The notes beneath the pieces were generated by a model. It made no database searches and was not told where the DNA came from. It saw only the letters and a program-made list of their open reading frames with translations. The translations under genes and the position numbers were made by a program. This document shows, one piece after another, positions 41,652-63,201 of a stretch of DNA of 64,000 bases; within the stretch, counting starts at the first letter, position 1; every line of letters starts with the position of its first letter. Source of the stretch: Candidatus Curtissbacteria bacterium RIFCSPHIGHO2_01_FULL_41_11 (GTDB taxonomy: Bacteria > Patescibacteriota > Microgenomatia > Curtissbacterales > GWA2-41-24); contig MFAZ01000043.1 in assembly GCA_001776335.1 (NCBI GenBank), forward strand, positions 3,984-67,983, read 5' to 3'.

Positions 41652-41823
41652 AATTAATACTCCAATGGGACACCAAGGTTTCCCCTTGGTATTCCTCTTC
41701 CTTTAGTGGATAAGCAAAGCTTGCGGTCCTCATCAATTTCATTGATTGCGGGCCTTAAATTTAATCTAGCATAGCTAGATTTAAATTTAATTTTATAAGA
41801 ATAAGTAAACGTAAATTTTATCA
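41652..41823 (-). promoter_or_regulatory. Conserved leader module copy A (family 2) between map and infA
   Basis: Contains the CTAGC-ATA-GCTAG hairpin, AAGGCCCG...GAGGACCGCAAGCUUUGCUUAU (shared with copy B) and GGAAGAGGAAUACCAAGGGGAAACCUUGGUGUCCC (shared with copy F). Confidence 0.55.
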
Positions 41824-42582
41824 TTATTTTAAATATGGCGTCAAGACTATAGGGCCATCTTTTGTGACAGCGACGGTTTGCTCAAACAGGCCGCCAAGTG
41901 ATTTGTCTTTTGTTGATATTGTCCAATTGTCTTGTTCCAGATAAACATCTCCCGATCCTTGTGCATAAATGACTTCAATTGCCAGGACCATACTTTCCAA
42001 GATTTTGGGGCCAAGTCCTTTTTTGCCGAATCCCGGAACCATGGGATCCTCGTGTAACTCGCGGCCAACACCATGACCGGTAAGACTTTTAACAATACTG
42101 TAACTGGCGCCTTCAATCTTGTTTTGGATGGTTGATGAAATATCACCGATTGTGCCACCTACTTTTGCGGCTTTTATGGCTTCTTTTAATGTTTGTTTTC
42201 CTGTTTCTAAAAACTTCATAGTACTTTTGGGGATATTCCCAACAGGAACAGATATTGCCATGTCACTGTGATATCCCCGATAAATTGCGCCGATATCTAT
42301 TCCCAAAACATCTCCCGATTCTAACTGTCTTTCCGTCGGTATGCCATGTACAACCTGACTGTTAATTGTTGTACAAATTGTCCATTTGTAATCATCGACA
42401 GTTTTAAAGGACGATTCACCGCCGTTTTTTCGAATCTCAACATCTGCAATCCTATCCAAATCTATGCATTTTACACCCGGTCTAACACTCTCCAAAACTT
42501 TCTTCAACGCTTTGGCGCAAATTGCACCTGAAACTTTCATCAGTTTCAGTTCCTCTTTAGTCTTTACCTGTGACATTTCCAA
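41824..42582 (-). CDS. map: Methionine aminopeptidase type I
   Basis: 252 aa pita-bread fold with metal-ligand residues. Confidence 0.9.
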   Translation of the reverse strand: MEMSQVKTKEELKLMKVSGAICAKALKKVLESVRPGVKCIDLDRIADVEIRKNGGESSFKTVDDYKWTICTTINSQVVHGIPTERQLESGDVLGIDIGAIYRGYHSDMAISVPVGNIPKSTMKFLETGKQTLKEAIKAAKVGGTIGDISSTIQNKIEGASYSIVKSLTGHGVGRELHEDPMVPGFGKKGLGPKILESMVLAIEVIYAQGSGDVYLEQDNWTISTKDKSLGGLFEQTVAVTKDGPIVLTPYLK

Positions 42583-43102
42583 GTTTTGATAATATATCCT
42601 GCTGAACCTCGCCCTGGGTTCTTACCCCGTTGATTTCTTCCAAGTTACCTTGTTGTCTGAAATACGTCAGAAGGGGTTCTGTTTCCTTGTGATAGAGTTC
42701 CAGACGTCTGGTGATTACATCCAGGCTGTCATCGTGTCTGCCCCTTGCGATTAATCTTTTTATGCCTTCGTTATCCGAAACTTTAATATAAAAGACCTTA
42801 TCAATATCTGTTGGCAGGCCCTCAATCTGGGCATAATTTCTGGGATATCCGTCCAGGACATAACCGTTCTTGCAATCGTTTTCGGATACCCTTTTTTTCA
42901 TTAGGCCAATTGTTATTGTGTCCGGAACAAGATTGCCTACTTCCAGGGCTTGTCGGATTTCCCCGCCTTCTTCGTCATTATCTTTTGATTTATCACGTAG
43001 AAGCTGACCCATCTCGATGTAGGGGAGACCTAGCTTTTCTGAAAGCATTTTTGCCTGTGTTGATTTACCAGATCCTTGTGCGCCTAAAAAAATAATCTTC
43101 AT
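42557..43102 (-). CDS. adk: Adenylate kinase (short LID)
   Basis: 181 aa. GAQGSGKSTQ P-loop. Confidence 0.9.
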   Translation of the reverse strand: MKIIFLGAQGSGKSTQAKMLSEKLGLPYIEMGQLLRDKSKDNDEEGGEIRQALEVGNLVPDTITIGLMKKRVSENDCKNGYVLDGYPRNYAQIEGLPTDIDKVFYIKVSDNEGIKRLIARGRHDDSLDVITRRLELYHKETEPLLTYFRQQGNLEEINGVRTQGEVQQDILSKLGNVTGKD

Positions 43103-43105
43103 TTT

Positions 43106-44389
43106 TTATCTTTTTCTTAAATAACTATCGTAATCTCTCATAACAAGTTGTGACTCGACCTGTTTGAATGTTTCGAGAACAACCGAAACTACGATTAAAA
43201 TTCCCGTACCGCCGACTAAAAGATTTTGGAGATCTGTTATGCTTTGAACAATAGATGGCAATATTGCAATTAACCCTAAAAATAATGCTCCAAACAAAGT
43301 TATTCTGAAAGAAATATATTCAAGGAAAGACTTGGTTGCCTGACCCGGTCTGATACCGGTTATAAAACCACCTTGCTTCATGAGCATTTCTGAAAGTTGT
43401 TTTGTATTGAAAGCCACTGTTGTGTAGAAATAAGTAAAAATTACTACCAGAAGAAAATAAGTAACGTTGTATAAAATTCCGTTTGGGTTAAAAATACGCT
43501 GAATGTTTTGAGCAGCGTTAGCGACCAAAACGTTTGGAGAAGATTCGAAGAATCTAGCGAAAGTTGTCGGCAACAAAATCAAGGACACCGCAAAAATTAT
43601 AGGGATTACACCGGCCTGATTAACTCTCATCGGAATAAAACTTGTAACTGCCGACTGAGAACCAGCTGACCTTCTTGAATAATTTACCTTTATTGGTCTC
43701 CGTGCTTCGGTTACAATAACTATTGAGACAACTACAATTAAACTCATTACTAAAAATATAAGAATATTTTTTATCTGACTTGGATCAAAAACTGATGCCG
43801 TTTGCAAAAAACTTATTGGAAGTCTTCCCACAATTCCTGCAAAAATTACCATTGAAATACCGTTCCCTATTCCCCTTTCTGTGATAAGTTCACCAAGCCA
43901 CATCAAAAAAATGGTCCCGGCTGTCATGGTTGTTATCATCGAAAGCAACGTCAGTGGAGTTACAGTAGTAATGATGTTTGAATTCTTTAAGAGTATATAC
44001 ATGCCGAAAGCTTGAATTACCGTAAGTGGAACTGTGAGATATCTTGTATATTGATTGATTTTTTCTCTTCCCGATTCTCCTTCTTTGGAAAGCTCTTCAA
44101 GTTTTGGGATTACCATTTGGAGCAGTTGCATGATAATGCTGGCATTAATGTATGGGTTAAGACCCAGCGACATGACCGAAAAATTGGCCAGTGTCCCACC
44201 GGAAAAAATGTCGAGTAGCGAAAGTAGCTGACTCTGGCCAAAAAGTTGTTTCAGTGACGAGATGTCAACTCCCGGAACAGGAACGTGTGCAAAAATTCTA
44301 AAGACAAGCAAGATCATTGCAGTAAAAATAATCTTTTGTCTAATCTGACTAACTTTAAAGGCTTTAATTAATGTGGATAAAAATCTCAT
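43106..44389 (-). CDS. secY: Preprotein translocase subunit SecY
   Basis: 427 aa, 10 TM. Confidence 0.95.
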
Positions 44390-44391
44390 CT

Positions 44392-44865
44392 TTATTTCTT
44401 TGCGATTTTTGGTTTAGCGTTTTCTGATTTTAATTGAGGCTTGCCCGCACCGATTTTTTCAGCAGCTTTTTTGGATATCGGAACATTTATTTTCAGGGTT
44501 TTAGTTAATTTACCGTCACCCAAAATTTTTACACCATATACTTTTGCGTCATCAGCCTTTACGATTTTATATTTAACCAGAGTTTCTATATCAACCGTTG
44601 ATCCTTCCGGTAAAATGTTTAGGGCAACTAAGTTTATTACCAAAGGTTTTTTACTAACTCTTTTATTACCCTTACCTCTTCTATAAGGTAGTCTTTTGAA
44701 AAGTGGTCTTTGCCCACCTTCAAAGTGAGGGTGCATAAGTGAAACTTTACCTCGGGCTTTTTGTCCTTTGGTTCCCCTACCGGATGTTTTCCCTTTGCCG
44801 GACCCTGGTCCTCGTCCGATTCTTTTTTTAGAAAACTTTTTGATTTTTAAGAGTTGTTGTTTCAT
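44392..44865 (-). CDS. rplO: 50S ribosomal protein L15
   Basis: 157 aa. [15 protein letters not shown]. Confidence 0.95.
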
Positions 44866-45320
44866 TTAAATGTTGTCAGTGCTTCTAATGTTGCGTAAAC
44901 GTTGGACGCCTGATTTTTGGTTCCCAGAACTTTGCTGGAAATATTTAAGATGCCCGCAGCTTCCACTACGCTTCTTACTGCGCCACCAGCGATTACTCCA
45001 GAACCTTCAGGTGCCGGCTTAAGTAAAATTTTGGCTGCTCCTCTTTTTATTAACACATCATGAGGTATTGTGCCACGAACAATCGGGACTGTGATTAAAT
45101 GCTTTTTGGCGTAAGCCGACGCTTTGCGAATAGCAGATGCGACATCACGAGCTTTTCCAAGTCCTACACCAACTCTCCCTTTTTTATCGCCAACTACTAG
45201 CAAAACCGAAAAGGCCATTCTATTGCCTCCTTTGGTCTTTTTAGAAACACGATTGACTTGGATTACTCTTTCGTCGAATTCTCTGGCTTCCTGCATAAAA
45301 CGAGCTTCGTTGTTTGCCAT
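44862..45320 (-). CDS. rpsE: 30S ribosomal protein S5
   Basis: 152 aa uS5. Directly followed by rplO, with no L30 gene between them. Confidence 0.95.
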
Positions 45321-45322
45321 GT

Positions 45323-45661
45323 TTAAAAAGCTAGACCTCCTTCTCTTGCACCTTCTGCCAGTGCTTTAATTCTGCCGTGATATTTATAACCAGCACGATC
45401 AAAAACCGCTTTTTTTACATTTTTCTTAAGTGCTGCGCTTGCCAATGTTTTGCCGACTTCTTTTGCTCTTTCTGTTTTAGAACCAGATTTTTCTACGTCC
45501 GATGCAGAAACAATTGTCAATCTCTTTTTATCGTCTATAAGCTGGGCGTATATATACTTGTTGGATCTGAAAACTGAGAGTCTGGGAAGGCTTTCTGTTC
45601 CCTCTACCTTCCTTCTAACTCTGGCGTGTCTTGCAATTCTTTGAGATCTTTTGTTTTTCAT
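45323..45661 (-). CDS. rplR: 50S ribosomal protein L18
   Basis: 112 aa uL18. Confidence 0.95.
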
Positions 45662-45664
45662 AGA

Positions 45665-46210
45665 TTACGCTCCTACTGCTTTAACAGCTTTTCCTGCTTT
45701 CTTTCTGACTATTTCATCGCTATATCTAATTCCTTTTCCTTTGTAGGGTTCGGGCGGGCGGACTTTTCTAATTTTTGCTGCCATTTCACCCACTGCAATT
45801 TTGTCTATTCCGGAAACTATAATTTTGTTATCTTTAGTGTCAAATTCCACACCATTTGTCGATATTATAACTACTGGGTGGGAATATCCAACATTTAGTA
45901 CTAAGTCGTTTCCTTGTTTGGCTGCTTTATATCCAACACCTACAAGTTCCAGCATTTTTTGATGACCATCGGTGACGCCTTTTACCATGTTTGAGATTAC
46001 ACTTCTGGTTAAACCGTGGAGTGCTTTTGCGAATTTATTTTCCGACTTTCTGCTAATTTTTACTGTTTGGTTTTCAACCATAACTGCAATTTCCGGTCTT
46101 ATTTGAAACGAGATATTGCCCTTTGGACCAGAAACATTAACGGTTAAATCTTCAACTTTTACCGTTACCCCCTGTGGTATCTGAACCGGTTGTTTGCCTA
46201 TTTTTGACAT
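45665..46210 (-). CDS. rplF: 50S ribosomal protein L6
   Basis: 181 aa uL6. Confidence 0.95.
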   Translation of the reverse strand: MSKIGKQPVQIPQGVTVKVEDLTVNVSGPKGNISFQIRPEIAVMVENQTVKISRKSENKFAKALHGLTRSVISNMVKGVTDGHQKMLELVGVGYKAAKQGNDLVLNVGYSHPVVIISTNGVEFDTKDNKIIVSGIDKIAVGEMAAKIRKVRPPEPYKGKGIRYSDEIVRKKAGKAVKAVGA

Positions 46211-46226
46211 AATTTGTTTCAGGTTT

Positions 46227-46601
46227 TTACCAAACCCTACAGATGACCTCCCCGCCCAGTTTTTTTGCTTTGGCTTCTTTACCTGTCATCACTCCTTGAG
46301 GAGTCGAGAGAATATATGTTCCCCTGCCACCTTTTAGTGTTGGAATTTTTTTACTTTTTGAATAAACTCTAAGGCCGAGCTTCGATACTTTTTGGATTTG
46401 GGAAATCTTGGGTTTGTGATTGTCATATAGAAGCTCGATAGTTATTTCTCGATCTTCGCTCTTAATATTGCCAATAAACTTTTCCTTTTCAAGCACTTTG
46501 GCAATTTCCAACTTAAATTTGGAAACTGGAATGGTCACAGATGGCTTTTTGGCCATATAACCGTTTTTTATTGTTATTAACATGTCTGCTATCGGATCCA
46601 C
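46227..46601 (-). CDS. rpsH: 30S ribosomal protein S8
   Basis: Start set at the GTG (46601) preceded by AAAGGAGGG. VDPIADMLI.IKNG motif. The longer track ORF would overlap S14. Confidence 0.9.
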   Translation of the reverse strand: MDPIADMLITIKNGYMAKKPSVTIPVSKFKLEIAKVLEKEKFIGNIKSEDREITIELLYDNHKPKISQIQKVSKLGLRVYSKSKKIPTLKGGRGTYILSTPQGVMTGKEAKAKKLGGEVICRVW

Positions 46602-46677
46602 GAGCCCTCCTTTGTCGGGAATTTCCAATTGGTCCCGTTTTCTGACGAAAAATGAATTTCCAATTTCCAATGATTTT

Positions 46678-46863
46678 TTACCATGATGATTTTTTGATTC
46701 CTGGTATCTCTCCTTTGTGTGCAAGATCTCTAAAACAGAGTCTGCATATTCCAAACTTGTTCATGAAAGCCCTTGGCCTGCCGCAAATCATGCAACGGTT
46801 TCGATGTCTTACCTCAAACTTTTGTTTTTTGTTGTTTTTAACTATCTTTGATGTTTTTGCCAT
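46678..46863 (-). CDS. rpsZ: 30S ribosomal protein S14 type Z (zinc-binding, 61 aa)
   Basis: [33 protein letters not shown]...[22 protein letters not shown] with a C4 motif. Confidence 0.9.
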
Positions 46864-46994
46864 AAAGATACTTGGAGAAAAGCTTAAGCTTTTCTCAATA
46901 TTCCCTTTCACTTAATAAGCAAAGCTTGCGGTCCTCGTCCTTTGAACTACGGGCCTTGGATAAAATTTTGGATTGTATTTTTAGATTACTCATA
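46864..46994 (-). promoter_or_regulatory. Conserved leader module copy B (family 2) between rplE and rpsZ
   Basis: Shares AAGGCCCG..GA.GAGGACCGCAAGCUUUGCUUAU with copy A and AATTTTGGATTGTA with copy D. Confidence 0.5.
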
Positions 46995-47537
46995 TTAATT
47001 ATTGCGGAATGGTACTCCTAAAAGCTCCATTAATTTTTTAGATTTTTCGGGATCACTGTTTTTTATAACTATGGAAACTACCAGGCCGCGAATCTTGTCT
47101 ATTTTTGCGTAGTCAATTTCCGGAAAAAGAATTTGCTCTGTAATACCCAAGCTGTAGTTGCCCATTTTGTCGAATTTATTTGTTTGTAGCCCTCGAAAAT
47201 CTCTCATTCTTGGCATAACAATTGCTATTAACTTCTCTAAAAAAATCCAAGCTTTTTTACCCCTAAGTGTTACCATCATTCCAATCGGATCCTTTTCTCT
47301 AAGTTTAAAAGTAGAAATTGCAGCTTTTGCCCGAGTTATTTTTGGTTTTTGTCCCGTTATGGTTGCCAGCTGTTCGTCTACTTTTGTCAAAATATCTTTG
47401 TTATCTTTTGCTTCTGCGATTCCCATATTAACTACAACCTTTTCAACATAAGGGATTGCTAAATCGTTTTTAAGATTAAATTCTTGTTTGAGTTTCGGCA
47501 TTATTTCCTGTTTATATTTTGTTTGTAAATTTGTCAT
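46995..47537 (-). CDS. rplE: 50S ribosomal protein L5
   Basis: 180 aa uL5. Confidence 0.95.
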   Translation of the reverse strand: MTNLQTKYKQEIMPKLKQEFNLKNDLAIPYVEKVVVNMGIAEAKDNKDILTKVDEQLATITGQKPKITRAKAAISTFKLREKDPIGMMVTLRGKKAWIFLEKLIAIVMPRMRDFRGLQTNKFDKMGNYSLGITEQILFPEIDYAKIDKIRGLVVSIVIKNSDPEKSKKLMELLGVPFRNN

Positions 47538-47860
47538 TTTTTCTCCTTAGGTTGGGCCAGACGACCCTGACATTTTTTACATATTCGTACTTTTATTTTC
47601 CCCTCCATCAGAAATCCTACTCTTGTCGGCTTCCCGCATTTTGGACAAATGATTGCTACCGTAGATGTAGACAATGGTCTTGCAATTTCGTAAATTCCCG
47701 CGGGTTGAGTCCTGGTTACTTTTCTGTGCCTTTTATAAATATTGACACCGGCAATAACAATTTTGTTTTCTTTTTTGTAAACCTTTTCAATCTTTCCTTT
47801 CTTACCTTTGTCTCGACCGGCCATAACTTGCACTTCATCTCCAACTTTGAATTTGTACAT
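47534..47860 (-). CDS. rplX: 50S ribosomal protein L24 with a C4 zinc-ribbon motif in its C-terminal half
   Basis: 108 aa. KOW-domain N-terminus, then ...AIICPKCGKPTRVGF...RICKKCQGRL. Confidence 0.9.
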   Translation of the reverse strand: MYKFKVGDEVQVMAGRDKGKKGKIEKVYKKENKIVIAGVNIYKRHRKVTRTQPAGIYEIARPLSTSTVAIICPKCGKPTRVGFLMEGKIKVRICKKCQGRLAQPKEKK

Positions 47861-48229
47861 TTATATAACCTCCTTGGCCAGAGACGCGATTTTCGCGAAC
47901 CCAAGTGATTTAACTTCTTGTGCTATTGGTCCAAAGACTCTGGTTGCCCTGGGAACTTTAGTGTTATCGATAATGACTGCAGCGTTTTGTGAAAATCTTA
48001 TATAAGAACCATCCGGTCTTCTTGTTTCCTTTTTGGTTCTCACTACAACAGCTTTTACTATTTCATGATCTTTGACTTGACCGTTGGGGTCTGCACCGCG
48101 CACTACACAAGTAACAATTTCTCCCAGTCGAACAAATCTTTTACCGGACCCTTTGCCCACTCCAATTACTACCAATAATTTGGCTCCACTATTATCAGCA
48201 ACTATCAAGTTAGATCTTCTTGCAAGCAT
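47861..48229 (-). CDS. rplN: 50S ribosomal protein L14
   Basis: 122 aa uL14. Confidence 0.95.
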   Translation of the reverse strand: MLARRSNLIVADNSGAKLLVVIGVGKGSGKRFVRLGEIVTCVVRGADPNGQVKDHEIVKAVVVRTKKETRRPDGSYIRFSQNAAVIIDNTKVPRATRVFGPIAQEVKSLGFAKIASLAKEVI

Positions 48230-48231
48230 AG

Positions 48232-48492
48232 TTACTTCACAACCTCCAATACTTTGAAGTGAACATTTTTAGAATAAGGTCTGGTTTCTGTAATTTTTAC
48301 TTTTTGGCCCATTTGTGCGCCTATCTCATCATGGGCCTTAAAGTTTCTAGTTCTTGAAATTATCTTTTTGTAAAGCGGATGTTTAATTTGTATTTTTACC
48401 TCGACCACAACTGTTTTTGGCATTTTATTTGAAACCACAGTTCCCTGTTTAACTTGCATTTTGACCATTCTCCTTTTGTGATTTTTCGGCAA
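48232..48492 (-). CDS. rpsQ: 30S ribosomal protein S17 (the real start is probably an internal Met)
   Basis: VVSNKMPKTVVVEV motif. Confidence 0.9.
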   Translation of the reverse strand: MPKNHKRRMVKMQVKQGTVVSNKMPKTVVVEVKIQIKHPLYKKIISRTRNFKAHDEIGAQMGQKVKITETRPYSKNVHFKVLEVVK

Positions 48493-48685
48493 AAGATTTT
48501 TCGTTTATCAGGGTCATAACCTGAGCGATGCTGCGCTTAATTGACAATAAGTGATGGTAATTTTTCGTTTTTGACATATCCCGTTCTATCATCGCTTCGT
48601 TTTTTTCCTTTAATAATCTCTCTCTTTCTTTTTTAAGAGCTTCGATGTTTTTGCTTTTTAATTCTTTTAAATCTTTGTTTTTCAT
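48449..48685 (-). CDS. rpmC: 50S ribosomal protein L29
   Basis: 78 aa. LKELKSKNIEAL.KE...LLKEK helical uL29. Confidence 0.85.
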   Translation of the reverse strand: MKNKDLKELKSKNIEALKKERERLLKEKNEAMIERDMSKTKNYHHLLSIKRSIAQVMTLINEKSFAEKSQKENGQNAS

Positions 48686-51711: not shown

Positions 51712-52466
51712 TTGCCAAGTGCCTCCTTTGAAATTAATAGATTGTTATTTTGTAATACTTGATACGCATTGATGTTTGATACTGGTTCTACTGTAAGTGA
51801 TTGTATGTTTCTGGTTGCCAACTTCACGTTGTCATTTTTTGAAGAAATTATAAGAAGCGTGTTTTTTTGAGCATTTAATTTTTTGAGAAGGTTGGCAACT
51901 GGTTTTGTTTTTGTAGAAATTTTTTCGAGGTTTGAGATAATATTTATGTCTCCATCTTTGGCTTTTTGTGATAGAGCATGAATTAATGCCTTGCGTCGCA
52001 TTTTTTGTGGCAGAGTAAGTTTTGCTTCTCGATATCTTGGACCAAATGTAGTTCCTCCACCGACCCAAAGGGGTGATCTTATGGATCCGGCGCGGGCATT
52101 ACCTGTTCCTTTTTGGCGCCAAGGTTTTTTGCCGCCGCCGCGGACTTCACCGCGGGTTTTGGTGTGGGCGGTATTTTTAATACTTTTTGTTTTGTAAACT
52201 CTTATCGCAGTAGCTAAAAGTTGTTTATTTGTTGTTTGTCCAAAAATTTCTTTAGGTAAGACAACTGTACCGACGCTTTTTCCGGACATATCAAAAACCT
52301 TAGCTGTTAGACCAGTTGGTTTTGTTTCTGTTTTAACAACGGGTTTTGTTATTGGTCGTTGGGATTGCTTCGCATCCGCTCGCAATGACTTTGACGTCAC
52401 GATTGATTTTTCTTTCGTTACTTTTGATGCCTTTGATACTTGCGATACTCTTACTTTATCTGCCAT
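51699..52466 (-). CDS. rplD: 50S ribosomal protein L4
   Basis: 255 aa uL4. Confidence 0.9.
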
Positions 52467-52575
52467 TTATTTTTTACTTTAAGGGCAAACCTCTACGGTT
52501 TTCCCTTAATATTCCCTTTCCCTTAAAGGACAAAATTTCACTAGCAAAGCTAGATGAAATTTTGGTTTAAGAATT
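52467..52575 (-). promoter_or_regulatory. Conserved leader module copy C (family 1), directly upstream of the rplD ATG
   Basis: About 50 nt near-identical to copies at 58651-58770 and 59257-59399. The RNA sense carries UAAGGGA-AAACCGUAGAGGUUUG-CCCUUA around GAGG, preceded by the CUAGC-UUU-GCUAG hairpin and AU-rich flanking arms. Confidence 0.6.
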
Positions 52576-53319: not shown

Positions 53320-53525
53320 TGTCGTTTAAGTACTAAAAATCGGAGACCCTTGAGATTATTCCTTCGCTTGGCTTGGGATTTTCAGGAGTCTCTCTTTAGT
53401 AAATTTCTAATTTCTAATTATTCTAATTTCTAATAATCCCGTTTTCTACGAAAAACAAATCCCAATTTTTTAATTTCTAAATTTATTTAGGTCAATTAGG
53501 TTAATTAGAGCAATTAGAAATTACT
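53320..53525 (-). promoter_or_regulatory. 206-nt structured spacer between rpsJ and rplC
   Basis: Four CTAATT repeats face four AATTAG repeats as inverted AT-rich tandem repeats. A GAGAC/GUCUC hairpin plus U5 lies about 20 nt before the rplC start. Confidence 0.4.
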
Positions 53526-53834: not shown

Positions 53835-54028
53835 TTTCTTTTAATGTGCTTTTTCCGAGAAAGAAAACGAGTCGAGAGGAAATTACTTATTACTTTAAGC
53901 GGTTAGACTTGAAGTTAAATATGGTTAATTTCATATTCAGCAGTGTCCTCGACTATTCGCTCTCTCAAATAGATTTGCAATTGAGTTCGCTTCGCTCACG
54001 TAATTTTGCAAATTTGCAAAATTATAGC

Positions 54029-54070
54029 AAAAAAAATCCTCCTTCGGCAAGCTCAGGATAAACCCTTGCC
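54029..54070 (-). terminator. Intrinsic terminator after tuf: GGCAAGGGUUUAUCCUGAGCUUGCC hairpin, then GAAGGAGGA and U8
   Basis: GC hairpin 54046-54070 followed (in RNA sense) by the run at 54029-54036. Downstream are three TTGCAAA repeats, a likely S10-operon promoter region. Confidence 0.5.
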
Positions 54071-54095
54071 AAAAAAGGAGTCATTGCCTTGCCGT

Positions 54096-55572: not shown

Positions 55573-57708
55573 CTAACTCTCTTTGGTTTCACCTTTCGTT
55601 TTGGCCACAATTTTATCTGCAATATTGCCCGGGACTTCTTCGTAATGGGACGGTTCCATATAAGCAGACCCACGACCTTGAGTAATCGAGCGCAGAGTGG
55701 TGACGTAACCGGACATTTCGGAAAGCGGAACAAGCGCTTTGACGATGACGGCATTGCCATGATGGGAAGAATCTAGAATTTGGGCACGTTTTGAGGAAAG
55801 ATCGCCTATGACATCTCCCATAAATTCTTCGGGGATTGTGACTTCAATATTCATTATCGGTTCCAAAAGAATCATATTGGCTTTTTTGGCTGCAGCTTCA
55901 AAAGCCATGGATCCTGCTATTTTGAAAGCGATATCGGAAGAGTCGACATCGTGATAGCTGCCGTCGTAGACTGCGACTTTCATGTCCACCATCGGATAAC
56001 CTGCCAAAACTCCAATTTCCATTTTTTCTTTGACACCTTTTTCGATAGACGGAATAAACTCCTGAGGAATTCGGCCTCCTTTGATTTCGGAAACATATTG
56101 GAAACCCTCTCCGCGGCCGAGCGGTTCAACCCGAAGGAGACAGTGACCATATTGACCATGACCCCCGGTTTGCCTGATGTATTTTCCTTCTCCTTCTGCG
56201 ATTTGTTTAATAGTCTCGCGGTAAGCAACTTGAGGACTACCGACATTTGCCGAAACCTGAAATTCCCGCTTCATTCTGTCTACTAATATTTCAAGATGGA
56301 GTTCGCCCATCCCTGAAATAATTGTTTGGCCGGTTTCCGGGTCACCTTTAATTCTGAAGGTGGGATCTTCCTCGGATAGTCTTCCGAGAGCATAACCCAG
56401 TTTTTCCTGGTCTGCTTTGGTTTGCGGTTCTATCGCCAAAGAAATGACCGGTTCGGGAAACGAAATTGATTCAAGGACGATGGGTGCTTGCGGGTCGCTA
56501 AGTGTATCTCCTGTTCCGGTATTTTTAAGACCGACAACTGCTATAATTTCCCCCGCATAAGCTTCCTGGATTTCTTCACGTTTGTCGGCGTGCATCAAGA
56601 GGAGCCTGCCGATTCTTTCAGAATCGTGTTTGCTGGAATTTGCAACTGCGCTACCTGACTTTAAAGTCCCGGAGTAAATACGAACATAGGTGAGTTTCCC
56701 AACGTGAGGATCAACCTGGATTTTAAATGCAAGGCCTGCAAAAGGCGCTTCTACTGTCTGTTTTCTGACTTCTTTTTCGCCGGATTTTGGGTTAGTACCT
56801 TCAATTTCTGCTTTGTCCATTGGAGACGGAAGGTAGTCAACAACTGCGTCCAAAAGTGGTTGAACTCCTTTGTTTCTTAAACTTGATCCGGCCATAACAG
56901 GCACGATTTTATATTCGATTACCGATTTTCTAAGAGCCGCTTTTAGATCGTTTACGTCTAATTCTTCACCTGCCAGATATTTCTCAAGCAGCACATCGTC
57001 TGCTTCTGCAATCTTTTCGACAAGTTCGTGGCGGTATTTTTCCATGTCTGCCTTGGCACCCTCTGGAATTGGGACTTCAGAATACTTCATGCCGGTTTTG
57101 TCTGTTTCATCCCAGACATAGGCTTTTCTTGTAAGAAGATCGATCACGCCTTTAAAATCATTTTCCTTTCCAAGCGGTATGTTGTAGGGATAAGCCGGTG
57201 CTCCAAGTTTGTTTCTGATTGATTCTAATGTCGCAAAGTAATCTGCACCAAGTTTGTCCATTTTATTTACGAAACAGATTCGGGGGACTTTATATTTGTC
57301 AGCCTGGCGCCAAACTGTTTCTGATTGAGATTGAACTCCTTCTTCGGCATCGAGAACTGTTACACCACCGTCTAAAACGCGGAGTGATCTTTCGACTTCT
57401 GCCGTAAAATCTACGTGGCCCGGGGTGTCAATGATGTTAATTCTAGCTTCAATATCTTTGTGGGGACCGTCTTTTGGAGTCCAAAATGCCGTAACTGCGG
57501 CGGAAACGATTGTAATTCCACGTTCTTTTTCCTGAGCCATCCAGTCGGTAACTGTTGTTCCCTCGTCGATATTACCGAGTTTATATGACTTACCCGTGTA
57601 ATAAAGAATCCGCTCCGTTGTCGTTGTTTTACCCGCGTCAATGTGGGCAATAATGCCTATATTTCGGATACGGTCAAGTGGATATGATCTGTCTTTTGCG
57701 TCGGCCAT
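55573..57708 (-). CDS. fusA: Elongation factor G
   Basis: 711 aa. AHIDAGKTT G-domain and all five EF-G domains. Confidence 0.97.
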   Translation of the reverse strand: MADAKDRSYPLDRIRNIGIIAHIDAGKTTTTERILYYTGKSYKLGNIDEGTTVTDWMAQEKERGITIVSAAVTAFWTPKDGPHKDIEARINIIDTPGHVDFTAEVERSLRVLDGGVTVLDAEEGVQSQSETVWRQADKYKVPRICFVNKMDKLGADYFATLESIRNKLGAPAYPYNIPLGKENDFKGVIDLLTRKAYVWDETDKTGMKYSEVPIPEGAKADMEKYRHELVEKIAEADDVLLEKYLAGEELDVNDLKAALRKSVIEYKIVPVMAGSSLRNKGVQPLLDAVVDYLPSPMDKAEIEGTNPKSGEKEVRKQTVEAPFAGLAFKIQVDPHVGKLTYVRIYSGTLKSGSAVANSSKHDSERIGRLLLMHADKREEIQEAYAGEIIAVVGLKNTGTGDTLSDPQAPIVLESISFPEPVISLAIEPQTKADQEKLGYALGRLSEEDPTFRIKGDPETGQTIISGMGELHLEILVDRMKREFQVSANVGSPQVAYRETIKQIAEGEGKYIRQTGGHGQYGHCLLRVEPLGRGEGFQYVSEIKGGRIPQEFIPSIEKGVKEKMEIGVLAGYPMVDMKVAVYDGSYHDVDSSDIAFKIAGSMAFEAAAKKANMILLEPIMNIEVTIPEEFMGDVIGDLSSKRAQILDSSHHGNAVIVKALVPLSEMSGYVTTLRSITQGRGSAYMEPSHYEEVPGNIADKIVAKTKGETKES

Positions 57709-57714
57709 AGTAAA

Positions 57715-57975
57715 TTATTTGGAAATTTTGTCTGAGGAGACTTGTGCGCCTAGTGGGTGTTCCAGATTTCGAATTTCTTTTTTGACTTCCGCAACCATTG
57801 CACGCAGAACAGAAACTTCTTCGTCTGCAAGTTCCCAGGCTGCATTTTCATTCCAGGCTGCGCCGGACTCCTGGAATGCGTCGCCATATTTGGCCAGAGC
57901 ATCCTTGAGCTTAACATTTTCAAGCTCGTCGAGCCTTTTTCTCAGATCTTTTATTTTTTGTGTTTTAGTTTGCAT
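57715..57975 (-). CDS. GreA/GreB N-terminal coiled-coil-domain-like protein (86 aa), with no C-terminal FKBP-like domain
   Basis: Acidic coiled-coil ORF. The tip ESGAAWNENAAWELADEE aligns with GreA ELGDLKENAEYHAAKEE, so the E44 equivalent is conserved while D41 is replaced by Ala. GAGGAAGGAA SD 8 nt upstream. 6 nt upstream of the fusA start. Confidence 0.45.
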   Translation of the reverse strand: MQTKTQKIKDLRKRLDELENVKLKDALAKYGDAFQESGAAWNENAAWELADEEVSVLRAMVAEVKKEIRNLEHPLGAQVSSDKISK

Positions 57976-58123
57976 TTCGTCAGTTCCTTCCTCAATGTAA
58001 ACATGCTTTGGTTAACAAATTTCATTTAAGCAGAAACTAGTCATCTTATACAAGGATTGACTTTATCCATTACTAAGCGGAAAAGCTTAATTCACCTGGC
58101 TAGAGGTATTAGGATAAGCGGGA

Positions 58124-58152
58124 ATTATATCAGTGAACGTCTTTTTAAGCAA
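58124..58152 (-). promoter_or_regulatory. Strong sigma70-like promoter TTGCTT-17nt-TGATATAAT (extended -10), immediately downstream of the rpsG stop
   Basis: -35 at 58152..58147, TG at 58132-58131, -10 at 58129..58124. Drives the GreA-N-like gene and fusA. Confidence 0.5.
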
Positions 58153-58155
58153 GAA

Positions 58156-58650
58156 TTACCACCTAAAGTGGGCAAACGCCTTATTCGCTTCGGCTGCGCG
58201 GTGCATTTCGTCGCGCTTTGCAACAGCTTTGCCCGTTCCTTGTGCTGCCTCTAGAATTTCTGCTGCCAGTTTTGCCGCGATTGGTGGAAGGTTTTTGATC
58301 TTTTCGACTTCCTTGGGCGAGCGGCTTCTGGCTGAAATTACCAACCAGGTAAGAGCCAGGGATTGCCTCCTGGGACCTCGAACTTCCATGGGCACCATGT
58401 AGGAAGCACCGCCGACACGCCTTGGTCTGACTTCCATTTTTGGTGTTACATTTTCCAGGGCTTTTTCGAAGGTAGTTTGCGGGTTTTGGCCTTTGCCTTC
58501 AATATATTCGAATGCGCCGTAGACTGCCTTTTGGGCAATACTTTTTTTACCGTGCATCATGATTTTATTTACAAGCTTTGCAACGGTGGGATTCTGGTAG
58601 ATGGGATCCGCTTCAATTTTTCTTTTTATGATTTTTCCTGCTCTTGGCAT
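58156..58650 (-). CDS. rpsG: 30S ribosomal protein S7
   Basis: 164 aa uS7. Confidence 0.95.
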   Translation of the reverse strand: MPRAGKIIKRKIEADPIYQNPTVAKLVNKIMMHGKKSIAQKAVYGAFEYIEGKGQNPQTTFEKALENVTPKMEVRPRRVGGASYMVPMEVRGPRRQSLALTWLVISARSRSPKEVEKIKNLPPIAAKLAAEILEAAQGTGKAVAKRDEMHRAAEANKAFAHFRW

Positions 58651-58770
58651 GTTTTTACTTTAAGGGACAACCTCTACGGTTTTCCCTTAATATTCCCTTT
58701 CCCTTGAAGGACAAAATTACACTGGCTGAGCCAGATATAATTTTGGATTGTAAAATAAATTTATTCATAT
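58651..58770 (-). promoter_or_regulatory. Conserved leader module copy D (family 1) in the rpsL-rpsG intercistronic region
   Basis: Same 50-nt module as copies C and E. The upstream hairpin has compensatory changes, CTGGC-TGA-GCCAG here against CTAGC-AAA-GCTAG in C and E. Confidence 0.6.
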
Positions 58771-59256
58771 TTATTCTGTTGGTGCTGTAGGCTGAGATGC
58801 AGCTGCCTGGGCACCAACTGTTGCTGCTGCCTGGGCTCCTGTTGTAGCACCAGATTTCTTGGTTCCGTAAAGTGATCTTCCCTGTTTTCTATTTGAAACA
58901 CCTGTTGTGTCAAATTTGCCCCGAATTATGTGATATTTTACTCCGGGTAAATCTTTAACTCTTCCACCTCTTATTAAAACAACAGAGTGTTCTGCCAATT
59001 CGTGTCCGATACCGGGAATGTATGCTGTTATTTCCTGTCTGTTGGAGAGCCTGACGCGGGCCACTTTTCTGAGCGCAGAATTCGGTTTTCTGGGTGTCAT
59101 GGTTTTAACGATTATGCATACACCGCGCTTTTGACCGGAAGGATAACTTACATACCGGTTCGTTCGCGAGTTATAAGCACGCCTTAGACCGGTTAAACCA
59201 ATTCTTTTGATTTTTGCTTTTCTTCCTTTTCGAATTAACTGATTGACTGTTGGCAT
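58771..59256 (-). CDS. rpsL: 30S ribosomal protein S12 (Ala/Thr/Gln-rich C-terminal extension)
   Basis: 161 aa uS12. Confidence 0.95.
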
Positions 59257-59399
59257 ATCGTTACTTTAAGGGACAACCTCTACGGTTTTCCCTTAATATT
59301 CCCTTTCCCCAATGGTAAATTTAAACTAGCAAAGCTAGATTTAAATTTGATTTTAATTGAGGATGACATTTTAAGTTTTTACCGGGTAAATTTCAATGT
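59257..59399 (-). promoter_or_regulatory. Conserved leader module copy E (family 1) between rpoC and rpsL
   Basis: Near-identical 50-nt module ending ...CCCUUAAAGUAACGAUAUG at the rpsL start. Upstream is the hairpin CAAAUUUAAAUCUAGC-UUU-GCUAGUUUAAAUUU, followed by a U-rich run. Confidence 0.6.
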
Positions 59400-62300
59400 T
59401 TACGATTCTTTAATTCTAGCTCTTTCCGCACTGGAGGGGATAAGACGGCCAATTATAACGTTCTCTTTGAGACCCAGAAGTTGGTCGGTTTTGCCTTCGA
59501 TTGCAGCATCAGTTAGCACGTGCGTTGTCTCCTGGAAGGAGGCTGCTGAAAGGAAGCTTTCGGTATAGAGTGCTGCGCGAGTGATACCCAGAATCACGAT
59601 TTGGGCGGTTGCGGGTTCTCCACCCTCTGCAAGAATCTTGGAGTTTTCCTGCTCGAATCTGTGTTTATCTACAAGCTCACCTGGTAGAAGTGCAGTGTCG
59701 CCCGAGGATTCTATTCTGACTTTTTCGCTCATTTTTCTGACTATAACCTCGAAATGTTTGTCGTTAATTGGGACGCCCTGACTTTCGTAAACTTCCTGAG
59801 CGCCTTCAATGACGTATCTTTGTGCGCTTCTGAGGCCAGAAATTGAAAGGATTTCTTTAACATCAAGATATCCTGACGAAAGAGAGGTTCCTGCTGTAAT
59901 TTGATCGCCATCTGCAACTGTTAATTCCGAAGTAGGCGGAATGAAATATTCTTTCTCGACCGGTGGTTTAAGATTGGTACTTCTAACTTTGACTACATAA
60001 CCTTCTGCTGTTTCTTCGACGCTTACTTTGCCGGTTATTTCTGAAATTTTAGCCGCAAATTTTGGAGTTCGAGCCTCGAAAAGCTCTTCGACACGAGGAA
60101 GGCCTTGAGTAATATCAAGACCAACGATTCCACCTGTGTGGAAAGTTCTCATGGTAAGCTGCGTTCCGGGTTCACCAATAGATTGTGCCGCAATTACGCC
60201 AACCGGCGTACCGATAGTAACTTTTTGTCTTGTTGCGAGATCGCGTCCATAGCAGTTTGCGCAAAGACCATATTTTGCTTCGCAAGTTAATATTGATCTT
60301 ACAGTCACTTCCTCTATTCCCGCTTTTTCAATCGCCTCAGCCTTTTCTTCGGTTATTTCTTCTCCGGCTGTGACTATGGGTTTTTTGCCCTTTGGCCCGA
60401 TATCAACTGCTGCGATTCTGCCGGTAATTCTCAGTGTGAAGAGAGCCTGACGTTTATCGTGCTTTGAAACCAACAGTCCGAGTTTAGTGTCACAATCTTC
60501 GGTTCTGATGATTGCGTCATGAGCAACATCGACAAGACGACGGGTGAGGTAACCGGATTCGGCAGTTTTAATCGCCCGGTCAGCCAAACCTTTTCGGGCA
60601 CCACGAGCTGATGTGAAGTATTCAAAAACAGAAAGTCCTTCACGGAAGTTTGATTTAACAGGAAGGGGCACGATTTGCCCTGAAGGATCCGTTACTAAAC
60701 CTCTAATTGCAGCAAGTTGTTTGATCTGTTCCGCTGTTGCACGGGATCCGCCGGAATCAGAAATAATTTTGATGGCGTTTGTGAGCGGCAGGCTTCTCCA
60801 AGTAAGGTCTGCCAGTTCGTTGGTTGTTGAAAGCCAGACTTCCTGGGAGAGTCTCCTTTCCTCTTCTCTTGTTATAAGGCCCATCTTAAAGTTCTTTTCG
60901 ATGTTTTTAACTTCTTTTTCCGCCTTTTGAATAATTTCCTGTTTGTTTGGGACAATCATACAGTCAAAAACCGATACCGAAAGACCGGAAAATGTGGCAC
61001 CTTCGAAACCCAGAGTCTTAAGCCTGTCTATAAGTTCAATTACCTGGTCTTCTGTCAAAAAGTCGACGCTTTTGCCAATTATCTTTTTAATTGCCGATGC
61101 TGAGACTGCGTCGTTTATAAAGCGGAGAGACTCCGGAATCTGCATATTAAAAATAACTCTTCCGGCAGAAGTATCCAGAATGTCTTTTTTGATTTTGACT
61201 TTGATTGGCTGGCGCATGCTAATTTTGGCGGTGTTAACTGCCAGAACAACTTCTTCTTCGCTTTGAAATACGTTTTCTACCGATTCTTTGGTGGAGTCAA
61301 TTGAAGTCAGGTAGTAAATTCCAAGAGCCATTTCTTTGTTGGGTAAAGTGATTGGTGATCCGTCAGCCGGACGAAGCAAGTTTCTGCCGGCCATCATCAA
61401 GCCAATTGCTTCCTCCTGGGATTTTTCAGAAAGAGGGACATGAACTGCCATTTGGTCACCGTCGAAATCGGCGTTGAAACCGGCGCAAATACAAGGATGA
61501 ATTCTAATTGCATCGCCTTCGATTAATATCGGATAGAAGGCTTGAATGCCTAATCTGTGTAGGGTAGGAGCGCGGTTGAGAAGTACCGGGTGATTTTTGG
61601 TAATTTCTTCCAAAATATCCCAGACTTCTCCGCTTCTTCTTTCCAAAAAGTGTTTTGCGCTTTTAACGTTTGGTGCAAATCCGCGGTTTATGACTTCGCG
61701 CAGAACAAATGGCTTAAACATTTCAAGAGCCATTTCTTTGGGTATACCGGTTTGGTTAAGATTGAGTTCGGGACCAACGACAATTACAGAACGACCTGAA
61801 TAGTCAACACGTTTCCCGAGCAGGTTTTGCCTGAATCTTCCCTGTTTCCCACGAAGCATGTCGGAAAGAGACCTTAGTTCTTGTGAAGCTCTGGTTGTCT
61901 TAACTTTTTGAGAATCTATTAGGGCATCTACCGCTTCCTGGAGCATTCTTTTTTCATTTCGAAGAATGATTTCCGGTGCTCCAAGCTCGATAAGTTTTTT
62001 GAGCCTGTTATTTCTGTTTATAACCCTTCGGTAAAGATCGTTAAGATCCGACGTCGCAAACCTACCACCGGAAAGCTGAACCATGGGTCTTAGGTCCGGT
62101 GGCAAAACCGGAAGGGTTTTTATAACCATCCAGGTTGGAGCGATGCCTGCTTTTCGCATCCCCTCGACAACGCGGAGTTTTTTAGCGGCTTTAATGTATT
62201 TTTGTCCGGTAGCTTTTGTGAGTTCCTGCCTAAGCTGTGCTGCCGAATTTGCCAGATCTACTTTTTCCAAAACTGCCAAAACAGCCTCCGCTCCCATGCC

Positions 62301-63089
62301 AACTTTAATGAATTCGTCTGCATTGTAGTCGCCTAGTTTGAAATATTCTTCTTCTGATAGAAGATCCAGGGGCTTTATAGATTTAACAAGGTTCGTGATA
62401 TTTTTGTAGATTTCTTCCAGTCTTGAAAGTTCTTTTGCGTTTTCGTCACGCATCATAGCTGTTTTGTGACGCATCACAAGTTGTGCTTCTTCTATTTTTA
62501 GATCTGACTGTTCTTTTGGACCTGTTTTTTTGGCTTTTATTACGGTGATCTCTTTTTTGCTTTCCGCTTCCAACTCTTCGATTCTCTTTTTGAGAAGGTT
62601 TTGTTGTTCTTTGCTTTTTTGAGCCAATTCGTTTTCTAAACCTTTTAAGACTGCTTTTCTCTTCTCCTCGTCGACTTCGATTACAATGTAGGATGCGAAG
62701 TAAATAACCGCATCAAGGCTTCTTGGCGAAACGTCCAAGAGAAGACCAAGTTTGGAAGGGCTTCCTTTGAAGAACCAGTTGTGGACAACAGGTGCGGCCA
62801 GAGTGATGTGGCCCATTCTTTCTCTTCGGACCCTGGATTGGGTTACTTCAACACCACATTTATCACAAATTATTCCTCGGTATCTGATTCTTTTATATTT
62901 TCCACAGTAACATTCCCAATCCTTTGTAGGTCCAAAAATACGTTCGTCAAAAAGACCATCTTTTTCCGGCTTAAGGGTTCTGTAATTTATTGTTTCGGGC
63001 TTGGTAACTTCTCCAAAAGACCAGGTTTTAATGTCATCGCCTGAGGCTATTGTAAGTTTTAATGCTTCAAAATCTACTAATTCGTTAAT
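59400..63089 (-). CDS. rpoC: DNA-directed RNA polymerase beta-prime subunit. The 5' end is uncertain: there is no ATG, GTG or TTG upstream of the conserved N-terminus, and an AUU initiator is proposed.
   Basis: The track ORF begins at an internal Met (MGHITLAAP). Codon-by-codon translation upstream recovers a conserved beta-prime N-terminus, ...INELVDFEALKLTIASGDDIKTWSFGEVTKPETINYRTLKPEKDGLFDERIFGPTKDWECYCGKYKRIRYRGIICDKCGVEVTQSRVRRERM, open to an in-frame TGA at 63168-63170. NADFDGDQMAVHVP is at the expected position. Confidence 0.85.
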   Translation of the reverse strand: MNELVDFEALKLTIASGDDIKTWSFGEVTKPETINYRTLKPEKDGLFDERIFGPTKDWECYCGKYKRIRYRGIICDKCGVEVTQSRVRRERMGHITLAAPVVHNWFFKGSPSKLGLLLDVSPRSLDAVIYFASYIVIEVDEEKRKAVLKGLENELAQKSKEQQNLLKKRIEELEAESKKEITVIKAKKTGPKEQSDLKIEEAQLVMRHKTAMMRDENAKELSRLEEIYKNITNLVKSIKPLDLLSEEEYFKLGDYNADEFIKVGMGAEAVLAVLEKVDLANSAAQLRQELTKATGQKYIKAAKKLRVVEGMRKAGIAPTWMVIKTLPVLPPDLRPMVQLSGGRFATSDLNDLYRRVINRNNRLKKLIELGAPEIILRNEKRMLQEAVDALIDSQKVKTTRASQELRSLSDMLRGKQGRFRQNLLGKRVDYSGRSVIVVGPELNLNQTGIPKEMALEMFKPFVLREVINRGFAPNVKSAKHFLERRSGEVWDILEEITKNHPVLLNRAPTLHRLGIQAFYPILIEGDAIRIHPCICAGFNADFDGDQMAVHVPLSEKSQEEAIGLMMAGRNLLRPADGSPITLPNKEMALGIYYLTSIDSTKESVENVFQSEEEVVLAVNTAKISMRQPIKVKIKKDILDTSAGRVIFNMQIPESLRFINDAVSASAIKKIIGKSVDFLTEDQVIELIDRLKTLGFEGATFSGLSVSVFDCMIVPNKQEIIQKAEKEVKNIEKNFKMGLITREEERRLSQEVWLSTTNELADLTWRSLPLTNAIKIISDSGGSRATAEQIKQLAAIRGLVTDPSGQIVPLPVKSNFREGLSVFEYFTSARGARKGLADRAIKTAESGYLTRRLVDVAHDAIIRTEDCDTKLGLLVSKHDKRQALFTLRITGRIAAVDIGPKGKKPIVTAGEEITEEKAEAIEKAGIEEVTVRSILTCEAKYGLCANCYGRDLATRQKVTIGTPVGVIAAQSIGEPGTQLTMRTFHTGGIVGLDITQGLPRVEELFEARTPKFAAKISEITGKVSVEETAEGYVVKVRSTNLKPPVEKEYFIPPTSELTVADGDQITAGTSLSSGYLDVKEILSISGLRSAQRYVIEGAQEVYESQGVPINDKHFEVIVRKMSEKVRIESSGDTALLPGELVDKHRFEQENSKILAEGGEPATAQIVILGITRAALYTESFLSAASFQETTHVLTDAAIEGKTDQLLGLKENVIIGRLIPSSAERARIKES

Positions 63090-63201
63090 TTCTCCAAGGG
63101 GACACCAGGGTTTCCCCTTGGTATTCCTCTTCCTCCATAGGATAATTTTGAACTGGCGGAGCCAGATTCAAAATTAATTTTATTTTTATAATTTTCATTG
63201 T
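63090..63201 (-). promoter_or_regulatory. Conserved leader module copy F (family 2) between rpoB and rpoC, overlapping the region where rpoC must initiate
   Basis: Shares GGAAGAGGAAUACCAAGGGGAAACCYUGGUGUCCC with copy A upstream of infA. Upstream hairpin CTGGC-GGA-GCCAG. Confidence 0.55.

Follow-up and report, generated by a model that had tools for sequence, protein, structure and literature searches.

The spacers of the ribosomal-protein supercluster in the 64-kb window studied here (the window being the whole stretch of DNA analysed, with a G+C content of 39.9%) hold six copies of a single strand-specific, bipartite structured element of about 100 nucleotides (nt). The copies, labelled A to F, lie ahead of infA, rpsZ, rplD, rpsG, rpsL and rpoC, and behind map, rplE, rplC, rpsL, rpoC and rpoB, respectively. 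Judging from its sequence, the element probably helps to express the gene behind it. The supercluster occupies 37.5-64 kb of the window on the minus strand, in the order rpoB, rpoC, rpsL, rpsG, fusA, tuf, rpsJ to rplE, rpsZ to secY, adk, map, infA, rpmJ and rpsM to rpoA, and all features of the element are read along this minus (gene) strand. Gene names rest on a reading of the window's translations and on Pfam assignments made on identical contigs. The L4 protein of the window matches that of Candidatus Curtissbacteria bacterium RIFCSPHIGHO2_01_FULL_41_11 at 100% identity.

A first alignment was made of 43 copies from the window and its relatives, which are denoted below by L and a number; RNAalifold predicted two hairpins in it (HP1 and HP2), and a covariance model, R1, was built from it. 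Applied to the whole window with filters off, R1 yields exactly six matches, all on the minus strand, with positions 1-38000 empty. The scores are 108.7 bits for copy C, 102.6 for D, 101.1 for F, 97.5 for E, 54 for A and 34.5 for B. Read 5' to 3', the element begins with a -10-like TAnAAT box, followed by HP1, an AU-rich stem of 14-15 base pairs (bp) with a bulged U and a CURGC-NNN-GCYAG tip. Then come UUnUCC and a GGA-rich purine tract with GGAAUA at its end. HP2 follows as a 12-13-bp stem (UAYYAAGGGRAAACC, loop, GGUUKYCCCUURR), and AGU and a few bases lead to the start codon, 4-13 nt downstream of HP2.

Copy C (52475-52575) begins right after the rplC stop codon and leads to the rplD AUG at 52466; HP1 is found at 52532-52563, the purine tract at 52510-52524 and HP2, of the UU/AA variant, at 52479-52509. 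Copy D (58656-58756; rpsG AUG at 58650) has the box TACAAT at 58747-58752, HP1 at 58713-58744, the purine tract at 58691-58705 and HP2 at 58660-58690. In copy E (59262-59396; rpsL AUG at 59256) these three parts lie at 59317-59348, 59297-59311 and 59266-59296, and a sigma-70-like site (TTGAAA-17-TAAAAT, 59368-59396, 10 of 12 positions matching) stands 5' of the entire module. Copy F (63087-63187) has TAAAAT at 63177-63182, HP1 at 63144-63175, the purine tract GGAGGAAGAGGAAUA at 63122-63136 and HP2 of the CC/GG variant at 63094-63121; a probable AUU start codon of rpoC occupies 63087-63089. Copies D and E are 94% identical, and C and D 85%. Single-sequence folds of copies C to F give z values of -4.3 to -5.4 (C -5.2, D -5.4, E -4.3).

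The two remaining copies carry a separate structured insert of about 45 nt, M3, marked by the block AAGGCCCG...GAGGACCGCAAGCUUUGCUUAU. Copy A (41658-41800; infA AUG at 41651) scores 54-56 bits (E about 4e-11), with a fold z of -3.6, and consists of the -10-like TATAAAAT at 41790-41797, HP1 at 41757-41788, M3 at 41710-41756, the purine tract at 41690-41704 and a CC/GG HP2 with one mismatch at 41662-41689. Copy B (46869-46981; rpsZ AUG at 46863; E 2.5e-6), whose whole spacer gives a non-significant fold z of -0.7, has TACAAT at 46972-46977, an HP1 remnant CCAAAAUUUUAUCC at 46958-46971 (the core of the hairpin is deleted), M3 at 46915-46957, the purine tract GUGAAAGGGAAUA at 46899-46911 and HP2 at 46872-46898. 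Its HP2 has a swapped stem (GAGAAAAGC/GCUUUUCUC), and the same variant stands ahead of nusA in L164. A seventh copy lies in the same genome just past the right end of the window (L203, 1153-1299), with HP1, an M3 identical to that of copy A, the purine tract and an AAGGAG/CUCCUU form of HP2. It is placed 4 nt ahead of a Cys-rich open reading frame (ORF) of 66 residues, between ruvX and yceG (mltG). M3 was seen only within copies of the element, between HP1 and the purine tract in A, B, the seventh copy and L169, and inside the HP2 loop in L214. In one metagenome contig, L179, the sequence downstream of ruvX runs through the left half of the seventh copy and, at the shared M3, switches to the right half of copy A, with infA behind it; this junction is probably an assembly chimera due to the repeat.

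The spacers had already been described, in a sequence-only reading, as mosaics of a few reusable modules, a description that holds, and every string quoted there was recovered on the minus strand at the place given for it. The tip hairpin, CTRGC-NNN-GCYAG, occurs five times (41766, 52541, 58722, 59326 and 63153) against 0.08 expected, and none of 100 shuffles reaches five. Copies A and F share 54 nt at 89% identity, A and B an exact 22-mer (GAGGACCGCAAGCTTTGCTTAT, 0 expected by chance), and B and D the block TACAATCCAAAATT; every copy except B contains the core GGAATAYYAAGGGRAAACC (0.14 occurrences expected), and a repeat finder yields the same families. What is not borne out is the division into two leader families, as one covariance model matches all six copies: "family 1" (C, D, E) corresponds to the UU/AA variant, and "family 2" (A, F) to the CC/GG variant, of the same HP2 helix. 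Likewise, the block shared by A and B (AAGGCCCG...GCUUAU), proposed as a module of the second family, is the separate insert M3, nested in some copies. The CCAAGG/CCUUGG stem-loop described for A and F exists; it is, however, an alternative fold in copy A, and the helix common to the whole family is the outer CCAAGGGG/CCCMUUGG stem.

Relatives were collected through L4 homologues and exact-protein look-ups. Patterns back-translated from the L4 alignment were discarded, being too conserved and matching Firmicutes and other distant phyla. A scan of public metagenomes with a core pattern gave 123 matches in 117 DNA stretches; about 30 lacked the 3' arm of HP2 and looked like chance matches, and 74 unique full modules were kept. 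Viral contigs gave one chance match only. Adding the matches found by the model alone produced a second alignment of 64 copies, 60 of them distinct. Given that the 3'-arm filter biases the two outer pairs of HP2, covariation was judged on HP1 and on the model-only copies. The seed pattern also fixes most of HP2 and had GGAAUA fixed, a motif that is kept in nearly all model-only copies too.

Both helices are supported. Among the 60 distinct copies, standard pairs make up 97.2% of the cells, 18 of the 23 pairs vary on both sides, and, in this model-fitted alignment, all five covariation measures beat each of 500 shuffles. When the 3' partners were slid as a control, pairing fell to 65% or less. 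A MAFFT alignment, not fitted to the model, has 97.6% of cells paired, 9 of the 13 HP1 pairs changing on both sides, and four of five measures above all 500 shuffles. The claim that the tip hairpin belongs to a selected helix is upheld by this larger set, in which all 13 HP1 pairs change on both sides (0/500 shuffles) and the A:U to G:C exchange at the tip persists (GC 31, AU 19, UA 2 in the distinct copies). Compensatory variants of HP2 occur in model-only copies: L160, L176 and the seventh copy have AAGGAG/CUCCUU, and B and L164 have the swapped stem. HP2 loops are about 2 to 9 nt long, and that of L143 holds an insert of 40 nt; such variation in length speaks against HP2 being a dimeric DNA operator, an idea that was rejected on this ground.

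The sequence-only reading had also raised the idea that the AU-rich hairpin and its U-run form an intrinsic terminator or attenuator; such signals would split long ribosomal operons into units. HP1 does have an A-run on its 5' side and a U-run on its 3' side, as in bidirectional terminators, a terminator scan picks out the 5-bp GC tips of D and E on either strand, and the -10-like box just upstream would form a promoter-attenuator pair. Even so, the U-run pairs with the A-run in a supported helix whose 13 pairs all covary; the full stem is followed by (G/A/U)UCC rather than a U-tract, and the upper stem taken alone has a tail that starts with AAA. Since the U-run is paired in the lower stem and NUCC comes after the stem, HP1 makes a poor intrinsic terminator. 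Only those 5-bp tips of D and E were flagged, with weak tails, and the 34 terminator-like matches in the region, against 23.2 +/- 4.6 expected, are about two standard deviations above chance. A conserved tip and a bulged U are foreign to intrinsic terminators, and the purine tract and HP2 would be left unexplained, so we consider this explanation quite improbable.

A conserved, covarying structure directly upstream of ribosomal-protein genes also brings to mind the classical autoregulatory leader, i.e., a mimic of a ribosomal RNA site bound by one ribosomal protein encoded downstream. However, the same element stands before more than 20 different genes, including rpoA, rpoC, tuf, infA, nusA, secY, hrcA, ftsL and tRNA-Val, its site differs between genomes, and no leader family of Rfam 15 matches even at E <= 5. 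We regard this explanation as very improbable, and in effect ruled out, because the element is tied to no single gene. Searching the whole window against Rfam 15 (4227 families) at gathering score, only a transfer RNA (tRNA) passes; at E <= 5, positions 41000-64000 give a weak Alpha_RBS match elsewhere as the sole hit, and the related loci give tRNAs only. No description of the element was found in the full-text literature when searched by sequence string, lineage and topic.

Automatic gene calls place a 56-residue ORF inside copy A (41654-41824, minus strand) and a 37-residue ORF inside copy F (L203, 6059-6172). The small ORF at 41654-41824 and the frames across A and F were rejected as coding, as the reading frame is not conserved between copies, and these calls are probably spurious.

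In relatives, the element is found at other sites. The orthologous rplC-rplD spacer is 1, 37 and 8 nt long in three relatives and lacks the module there, and the number of copies per 14-20 kb ribosomal cluster is six in the window, two in L214, one each in L216, L082 and L083, and none in L215. Movement between genomes is seen in a 26-nt core that is identical before rplD in the window, rpsH in L082 and rplP in L083. Polymorphism also exists among strains: copies A, B and C are fixed across all strains of the source species, yet L204, whose S12 protein and flanks are identical to those of the window, has no copy F. Conservation of the modules in orthologous spacers of close relatives, on which the sequence-only reading had staked its case, is thus not observed at rplC-rplD or in the near-identical strain, whereas the element itself is present in other spacers of the relatives.

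The strain without copy F permits a direct comparison. In L204 the rpoB stop overlaps the rpoC ATG (GCACCATGAACGAA); the window differs from it by the last 27 nt of rpoB, a 112-nt element and ATT as the rpoC start codon. This difference looks like a recombinational patch rather than a clean insertion. The rpoC gene of the window has no in-frame ATG, GTG or TTG before 62816, its N-terminus aligns from the ATT 4 nt after HP2 of copy F, and L204 uses ATG at that codon (L204, 6168-6171). Automatic calls give rpoC proteins of 1138 residues in the window-type strain and 1229 in L204. The infA of the window has an 11-codon N-terminal extension (41601-41651, minus strand), with its AUG 10 nt after HP2 of copy A, and AGC where L121 and L136 carry the AUG of MKPGV(I)EVEG. 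The start codons of rpoC and infA therefore appear, from these alignments, to have moved to a position set by the element.

Where copies share a site, they are well preserved. Same-site copies were found in several genomes ahead of ftsL, rpsH, rplF, rplP, rpsG, rpsL, tuf, rpoA, hrcA and rpmJ. For those of the same subtype, the purine tract and HP2 have an identity of 0.80-0.95, compared with only 0.47-0.75 for the first 150 nt of the downstream coding sequence. These parts have thus changed less than the adjoining coding DNA, which indicates that the copies are under purifying selection. The element would seem to spread by copy-and-paste or recombination into gene spacers, where it is then retained.

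Such turnover is what would be expected of a selfish miniature element, either of the type of miniature inverted-repeat transposable elements or a hairpin-ended derivative of the IS200/IS605 or REP type, tolerated because it does no harm to downstream expression. Consistent with this, the site differs among relatives, window copies can be near-identical (as D with E and C with D), copy F is present or absent between identical flanks in the window and L204, and the element is built of modules, the stretch from HP1 to the purine tract taking varied cargo and M3 being nested at differing positions. HP1 has a conserved extrahelical base, and the end hairpins of IS608-type elements also carry one. 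The strict strand bias is typical of single-strand transposition too, and a group of relatives beside tRNA genes (group 3, described below) is flanked by duplicated tRNA 3' ends. On the other hand, terminal inverted repeats are lacking, as the two ends of the element are not inverted copies of one another, target-site duplications were not seen either, and the filled and empty sites of copy F differ by a patch replacement that alters 27 nt of rpoB and leaves no duplication. Copies persist at orthologous sites where the ribosomal-protein coding DNA is 60-75% identical, and evolve more slowly than it does; compensatory changes preserve the pairing of HP1 in each copy; and there is a strong enrichment of copies in ribosomal-protein clusters. 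Among the genes called in the loci, with about 75 kb of the source genome covered, no transposase came to notice, though no systematic search for one was made. All considered, a purely selfish origin seems to us rather unlikely.

The genes behind the element were compiled over all loci. All assignable ORFs and RNA genes downstream are on the strand of the element. Directly behind copies stand the ribosomal-protein genes rpsH, rplP, rplF, rpmJ, rpsG, rpsL, rplC, rplD, rplB, rplN, rpsS, rpsZ and rplT, the translation and transcription genes tuf, infA, rpoA, rpoC and nusA, and further secY, hrcA, ftsL (assigned from an rsmH-like end upstream), a gene for a Pro-rich protein and small ORFs of no assigned family. 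One small protein behind a copy is presumably DUF2795-like. In about 40 cases, 4-13 nt separate HP2 from the start codon and contain no Shine-Dalgarno (SD) sequence; in about six, the distance is 21-53 nt and a canonical GGAGG stands ahead of the start codon. Some copies are initial to a transcription unit: one follows a divergent gene in L101, as possibly does one in L138, and another precedes hrcA in L130. Downstream proteins in the metagenome loci are 60-90% identical to those of the window. Given that this is the same range as in the NCBI Curtissbacteria genomes L082 and L083, the element is one specific to the lineage of Candidatus Curtissbacteria and close relatives.

In four loci (L085, L101, L132 and L172) a strong terminator hairpin (GACCCC...GGGGUC and a U-run) lies directly 3' of the element, followed by a conserved stretch with the perfect palindrome TACTGGCCAGTA and, about 145 nt on, a gene for a small membrane protein. 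Here the element and terminator could constitute a stand-alone small RNA or an attenuator.

The range of genes served raises the alternative that the leader is a regulon-wide RNA operator, or a ribosome-docking device, of candidate-phyla-radiation bacteria, the same leader standing before dozens of translation and transcription genes, including those of tRNA and transfer-messenger RNA (tmRNA). In its first form, the element could be the common site of one trans-acting protein or small ligand, which would co-regulate the transcription, antitermination, stability or translation of many housekeeping genes, in growth-rate control like that of eukaryotic 5'TOP mRNAs, or as an RNA-based processive antiterminator comparable to Nus/boxA-type leaders. 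In its second form, HP2, with arms AAGGRG and CYCCUU, could mimic the SD:anti-SD helix in cis and dock on the platform of the 30S subunit, so that initiation could do without an SD, even at AUU. In favour of the operator form, the sequence of the purine tract, GGAAUA and HP2 hardly varies, beyond what the helix needs, as in the 26-nt core identical in L082 and L083, and the gene set belongs mostly to the translation and transcription apparatus, tRNA-Val, nusA, hrcA and secY among it. The element-terminator-gene arrangement of the four loci above is the layout of an attenuator, an antiterminator or a decoy small RNA, and a related domain of purine tract and HP2 recurs in other non-coding contexts (groups 2 and 3). 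Nevertheless, no candidate factor was identified, and site and copy number vary between close genomes (0-6 per cluster, with one strain lacking F), which is unusual for a core regulon. Copies also stand ahead of ftsL, the Pro-rich protein and small ORFs, and the 3' arm of HP2 is only partly like the familiar boxA consensus, a likeness that is gone in the CC/GG variant. We therefore hold such an operator or docking device to be possible, if unlikely.

The explanation we favour, tentatively and at somewhat less than an even chance, is that the element is a portable expression cassette, which would combine a promoter, a 5' hairpin and a structured ribosome-loading site for the gene downstream. 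The operator and selfish-element readings are not mutually exclusive with it. From the layout of the copies we infer promoter activity, RNA stabilisation and ribosome loading. The -10 box would set an internal transcription start at the foot of HP1. In 21 of the 43 copies of the first alignment, TA[ACT]AAT stands at a constant distance from GGAAUA (-56/-55), and these genomes have another promoter-like site of this -10-only kind ahead of rpsJ, where TGnTATAAT comes after a U-run. If transcription began at the TA[ACT]AAT box, the RNA would have HP1 at its 5' end. In that position, HP1 may cap and stabilise the RNA, or it may act as a processing site in transcripts that read through from upstream. 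The SD-like purine tract and HP2, both found in all copies, would then serve as a structured ribosome-loading site, in which the folding of HP2 would shorten the distance from purine tract to start codon to about 8-15 nt and determine the point of initiation. The result would be that genes without an SD of their own are translated past a 100-nt spacer, even rpoC with its AUU. The shifted starts of rpoC and infA likewise point to a part played by the element in expressing the gene behind it.

Several observations weigh against the cassette, however. About half of the copies, C included, have a weak -10-like box or none, no -35 element is conserved, and a promoter scan over the whole window is not enriched (33 sites against 29.5 expected). 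About 50 of the roughly 75 predicted genes in the window have no strong SD anyway, and tight spacing to the start codon is weak evidence, because compact genomes put any insert beside a start codon. A tRNA-Val gene begins 3-7 nt after HP2 in L093 and L138, and a probable tmRNA gene, judged from its 5' sequence GGGGAUGUAUUGUUUCGACGGG alone, follows a copy in L197, where ARAGORN calls no tmRNA and the locus stops about 240 nt past the candidate 5' end. As these are RNA genes, a ribosome-loading role leaves their copies unexplained. The absence of any copy from 20 kb of the same gene cluster in L215 shows that the element is dispensable. Finally, 14 G-U pairs against 9 A-C mismatches is hardly an excess, so the wobble test gives no proof of an RNA helix on the sense strand. 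A different internal promoter, TTGTCC-N16-TATTAA of the sigma-70 type, was also considered and is unlikely: its -10 is poor, with the final T missing, and the RNA would begin inside HP2, leaving the covarying helix unexplained.

The element has features of several known systems, yet fits none of them fully. The REP/BIME sequences of enterobacteria, BOX of pneumococcus and Correia elements of Neisseria are multi-copy, intergenic, palindromic and modular, vary in site between strains, and can affect transcript stability or carry promoters. The element resembles them in being multi-copy, intergenic, palindromic, built of sub-modules and variable in site; it differs in being strictly gene-oriented, in standing ahead of start codons without terminal inverted repeats or target duplications, and in being kept at orthologous sites, where it evolves more slowly than neighbouring coding DNA. 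In the split ribosome-binding sites of phage T4 genes 38 and 25, a stable hairpin brings an SD-like tract near the start codon. The order of SD-like tract, hairpin and start codon is the same here, but in a multi-copy, family-wide cassette that precedes RNA genes too and has an effective spacing of about 8-15 nt, longer than optimal. The ompA leader, the 5' stabilisers of Bacillus and the STAB-SD of cryIIIA are stabilising 5'-terminal stem-loops. The element shares with them a hairpin at the predicted 5' end and an SD-like purine tract distant from the start codon, although in its case both the 5' end and the stabilising effect are predictions.

Putative mobile promoters (Matus-Garcia et al. 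2012, PMC3488235) are likewise homologous upstream regions found before non-homologous genes, within and between related genomes, and the -10-like box is a further likeness. In contrast, the present element is about 100 nt long, comprises a pair of covarying hairpins, keeps a set position relative to the start codon and is concentrated in ribosomal-protein operons, its promoter activity being putative. The ribosomal-protein leaders of Rfam (Eckert and Weinberg 2020, PMC7247131) also consist of conserved, covarying RNA structure in the leaders of ribosomal-protein genes. Unlike them, the element is bound to no one operon or protein, has many copies per genome at variable positions, and has no Rfam match.

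Related domains were observed outside gene leaders. In L099, L100, L107, L114, L141, L143, L163, L166, L171, L185, L190 and L193, the purine tract and HP2 form part of non-coding elements of about 190-480 nt beside tRNA genes, in which the purine tract pairs with an upstream pyrimidine tract. Those of L163, L166, L171 and L190 are flanked by a duplicated 3' end of the neighbouring tRNA, as if integrated. These elements match no Rfam family, and identification of this tRNA-linked group 3 as a group I intron or tmRNA was rejected, with no support from Rfam. In L110, L127, L133, L175 and L201, an HP2-containing element lies between tRNA genes that are on the opposite strand; its purine tract pairs with CCUUCC, and its context and orientation are unlike those of the window's copies.

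Other spacers of the region have leaders of their own, two of which are conserved in relatives. After tuf (53835-54095, minus strand, and L081-L083), a terminator hairpin with an eight-U run is followed by a -10 box of the TGnTATAAT type, the block CAAGYCUAACCGCUUA and rpsJ. Before rplC (53320-53525, minus strand, and L081-L083), long AU-rich inverted repeats precede a hairpin with a U-run (GAGACUCC...GGGUCUCCGAUUUUU) that resembles an attenuator. Neither leader has an Rfam match. The seeming infA-rpsM spacer (41263-41376, minus strand) is a 37-residue rpmJ (L36), a gene preceded by a copy of the element in L090, L112 and L187. The 447-nt rpsG-fusA spacer holds an 86-residue ORF without a Pfam match (57715-57975, minus strand); an ORF of 81-91 residues is at the same place in L214, L215 and L216, with a copy of the element ahead of it in L214. 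In the ribosomal operons of L214, which is also a Curtissbacteria genome, spacer modules of two more families, unrelated to the element, are repeated (3420-3512, 12292-12390, 13412-13565 and 16274-16394), each module ending in an SD (CCGGAGGUU, GAAAGGAGC). Reuse of leader modules seems general in the Curtissbacteria lineage.

For gene annotation, the element implies that gene callers mis-start rpoC and add spurious small ORFs within the copies. More broadly, bacteria of the candidate phyla radiation have tiny genomes and few regulators, and their control of gene expression is almost unstudied. A well-supported structured element, apparently undescribed and reused before ribosomal-protein, RNA-polymerase, translation-factor, chaperone-regulator and RNA genes, gives a concrete handle on this control, and an entry to the promoter, leader and ribosome-binding signals of an uncultured lineage. 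It also suggests that ribosomal-protein operons, thought to be rigid, can be repeatedly re-punctuated by a portable cassette, which in one case would have replaced the translational coupling of rpoB and rpoC with an AUU start.

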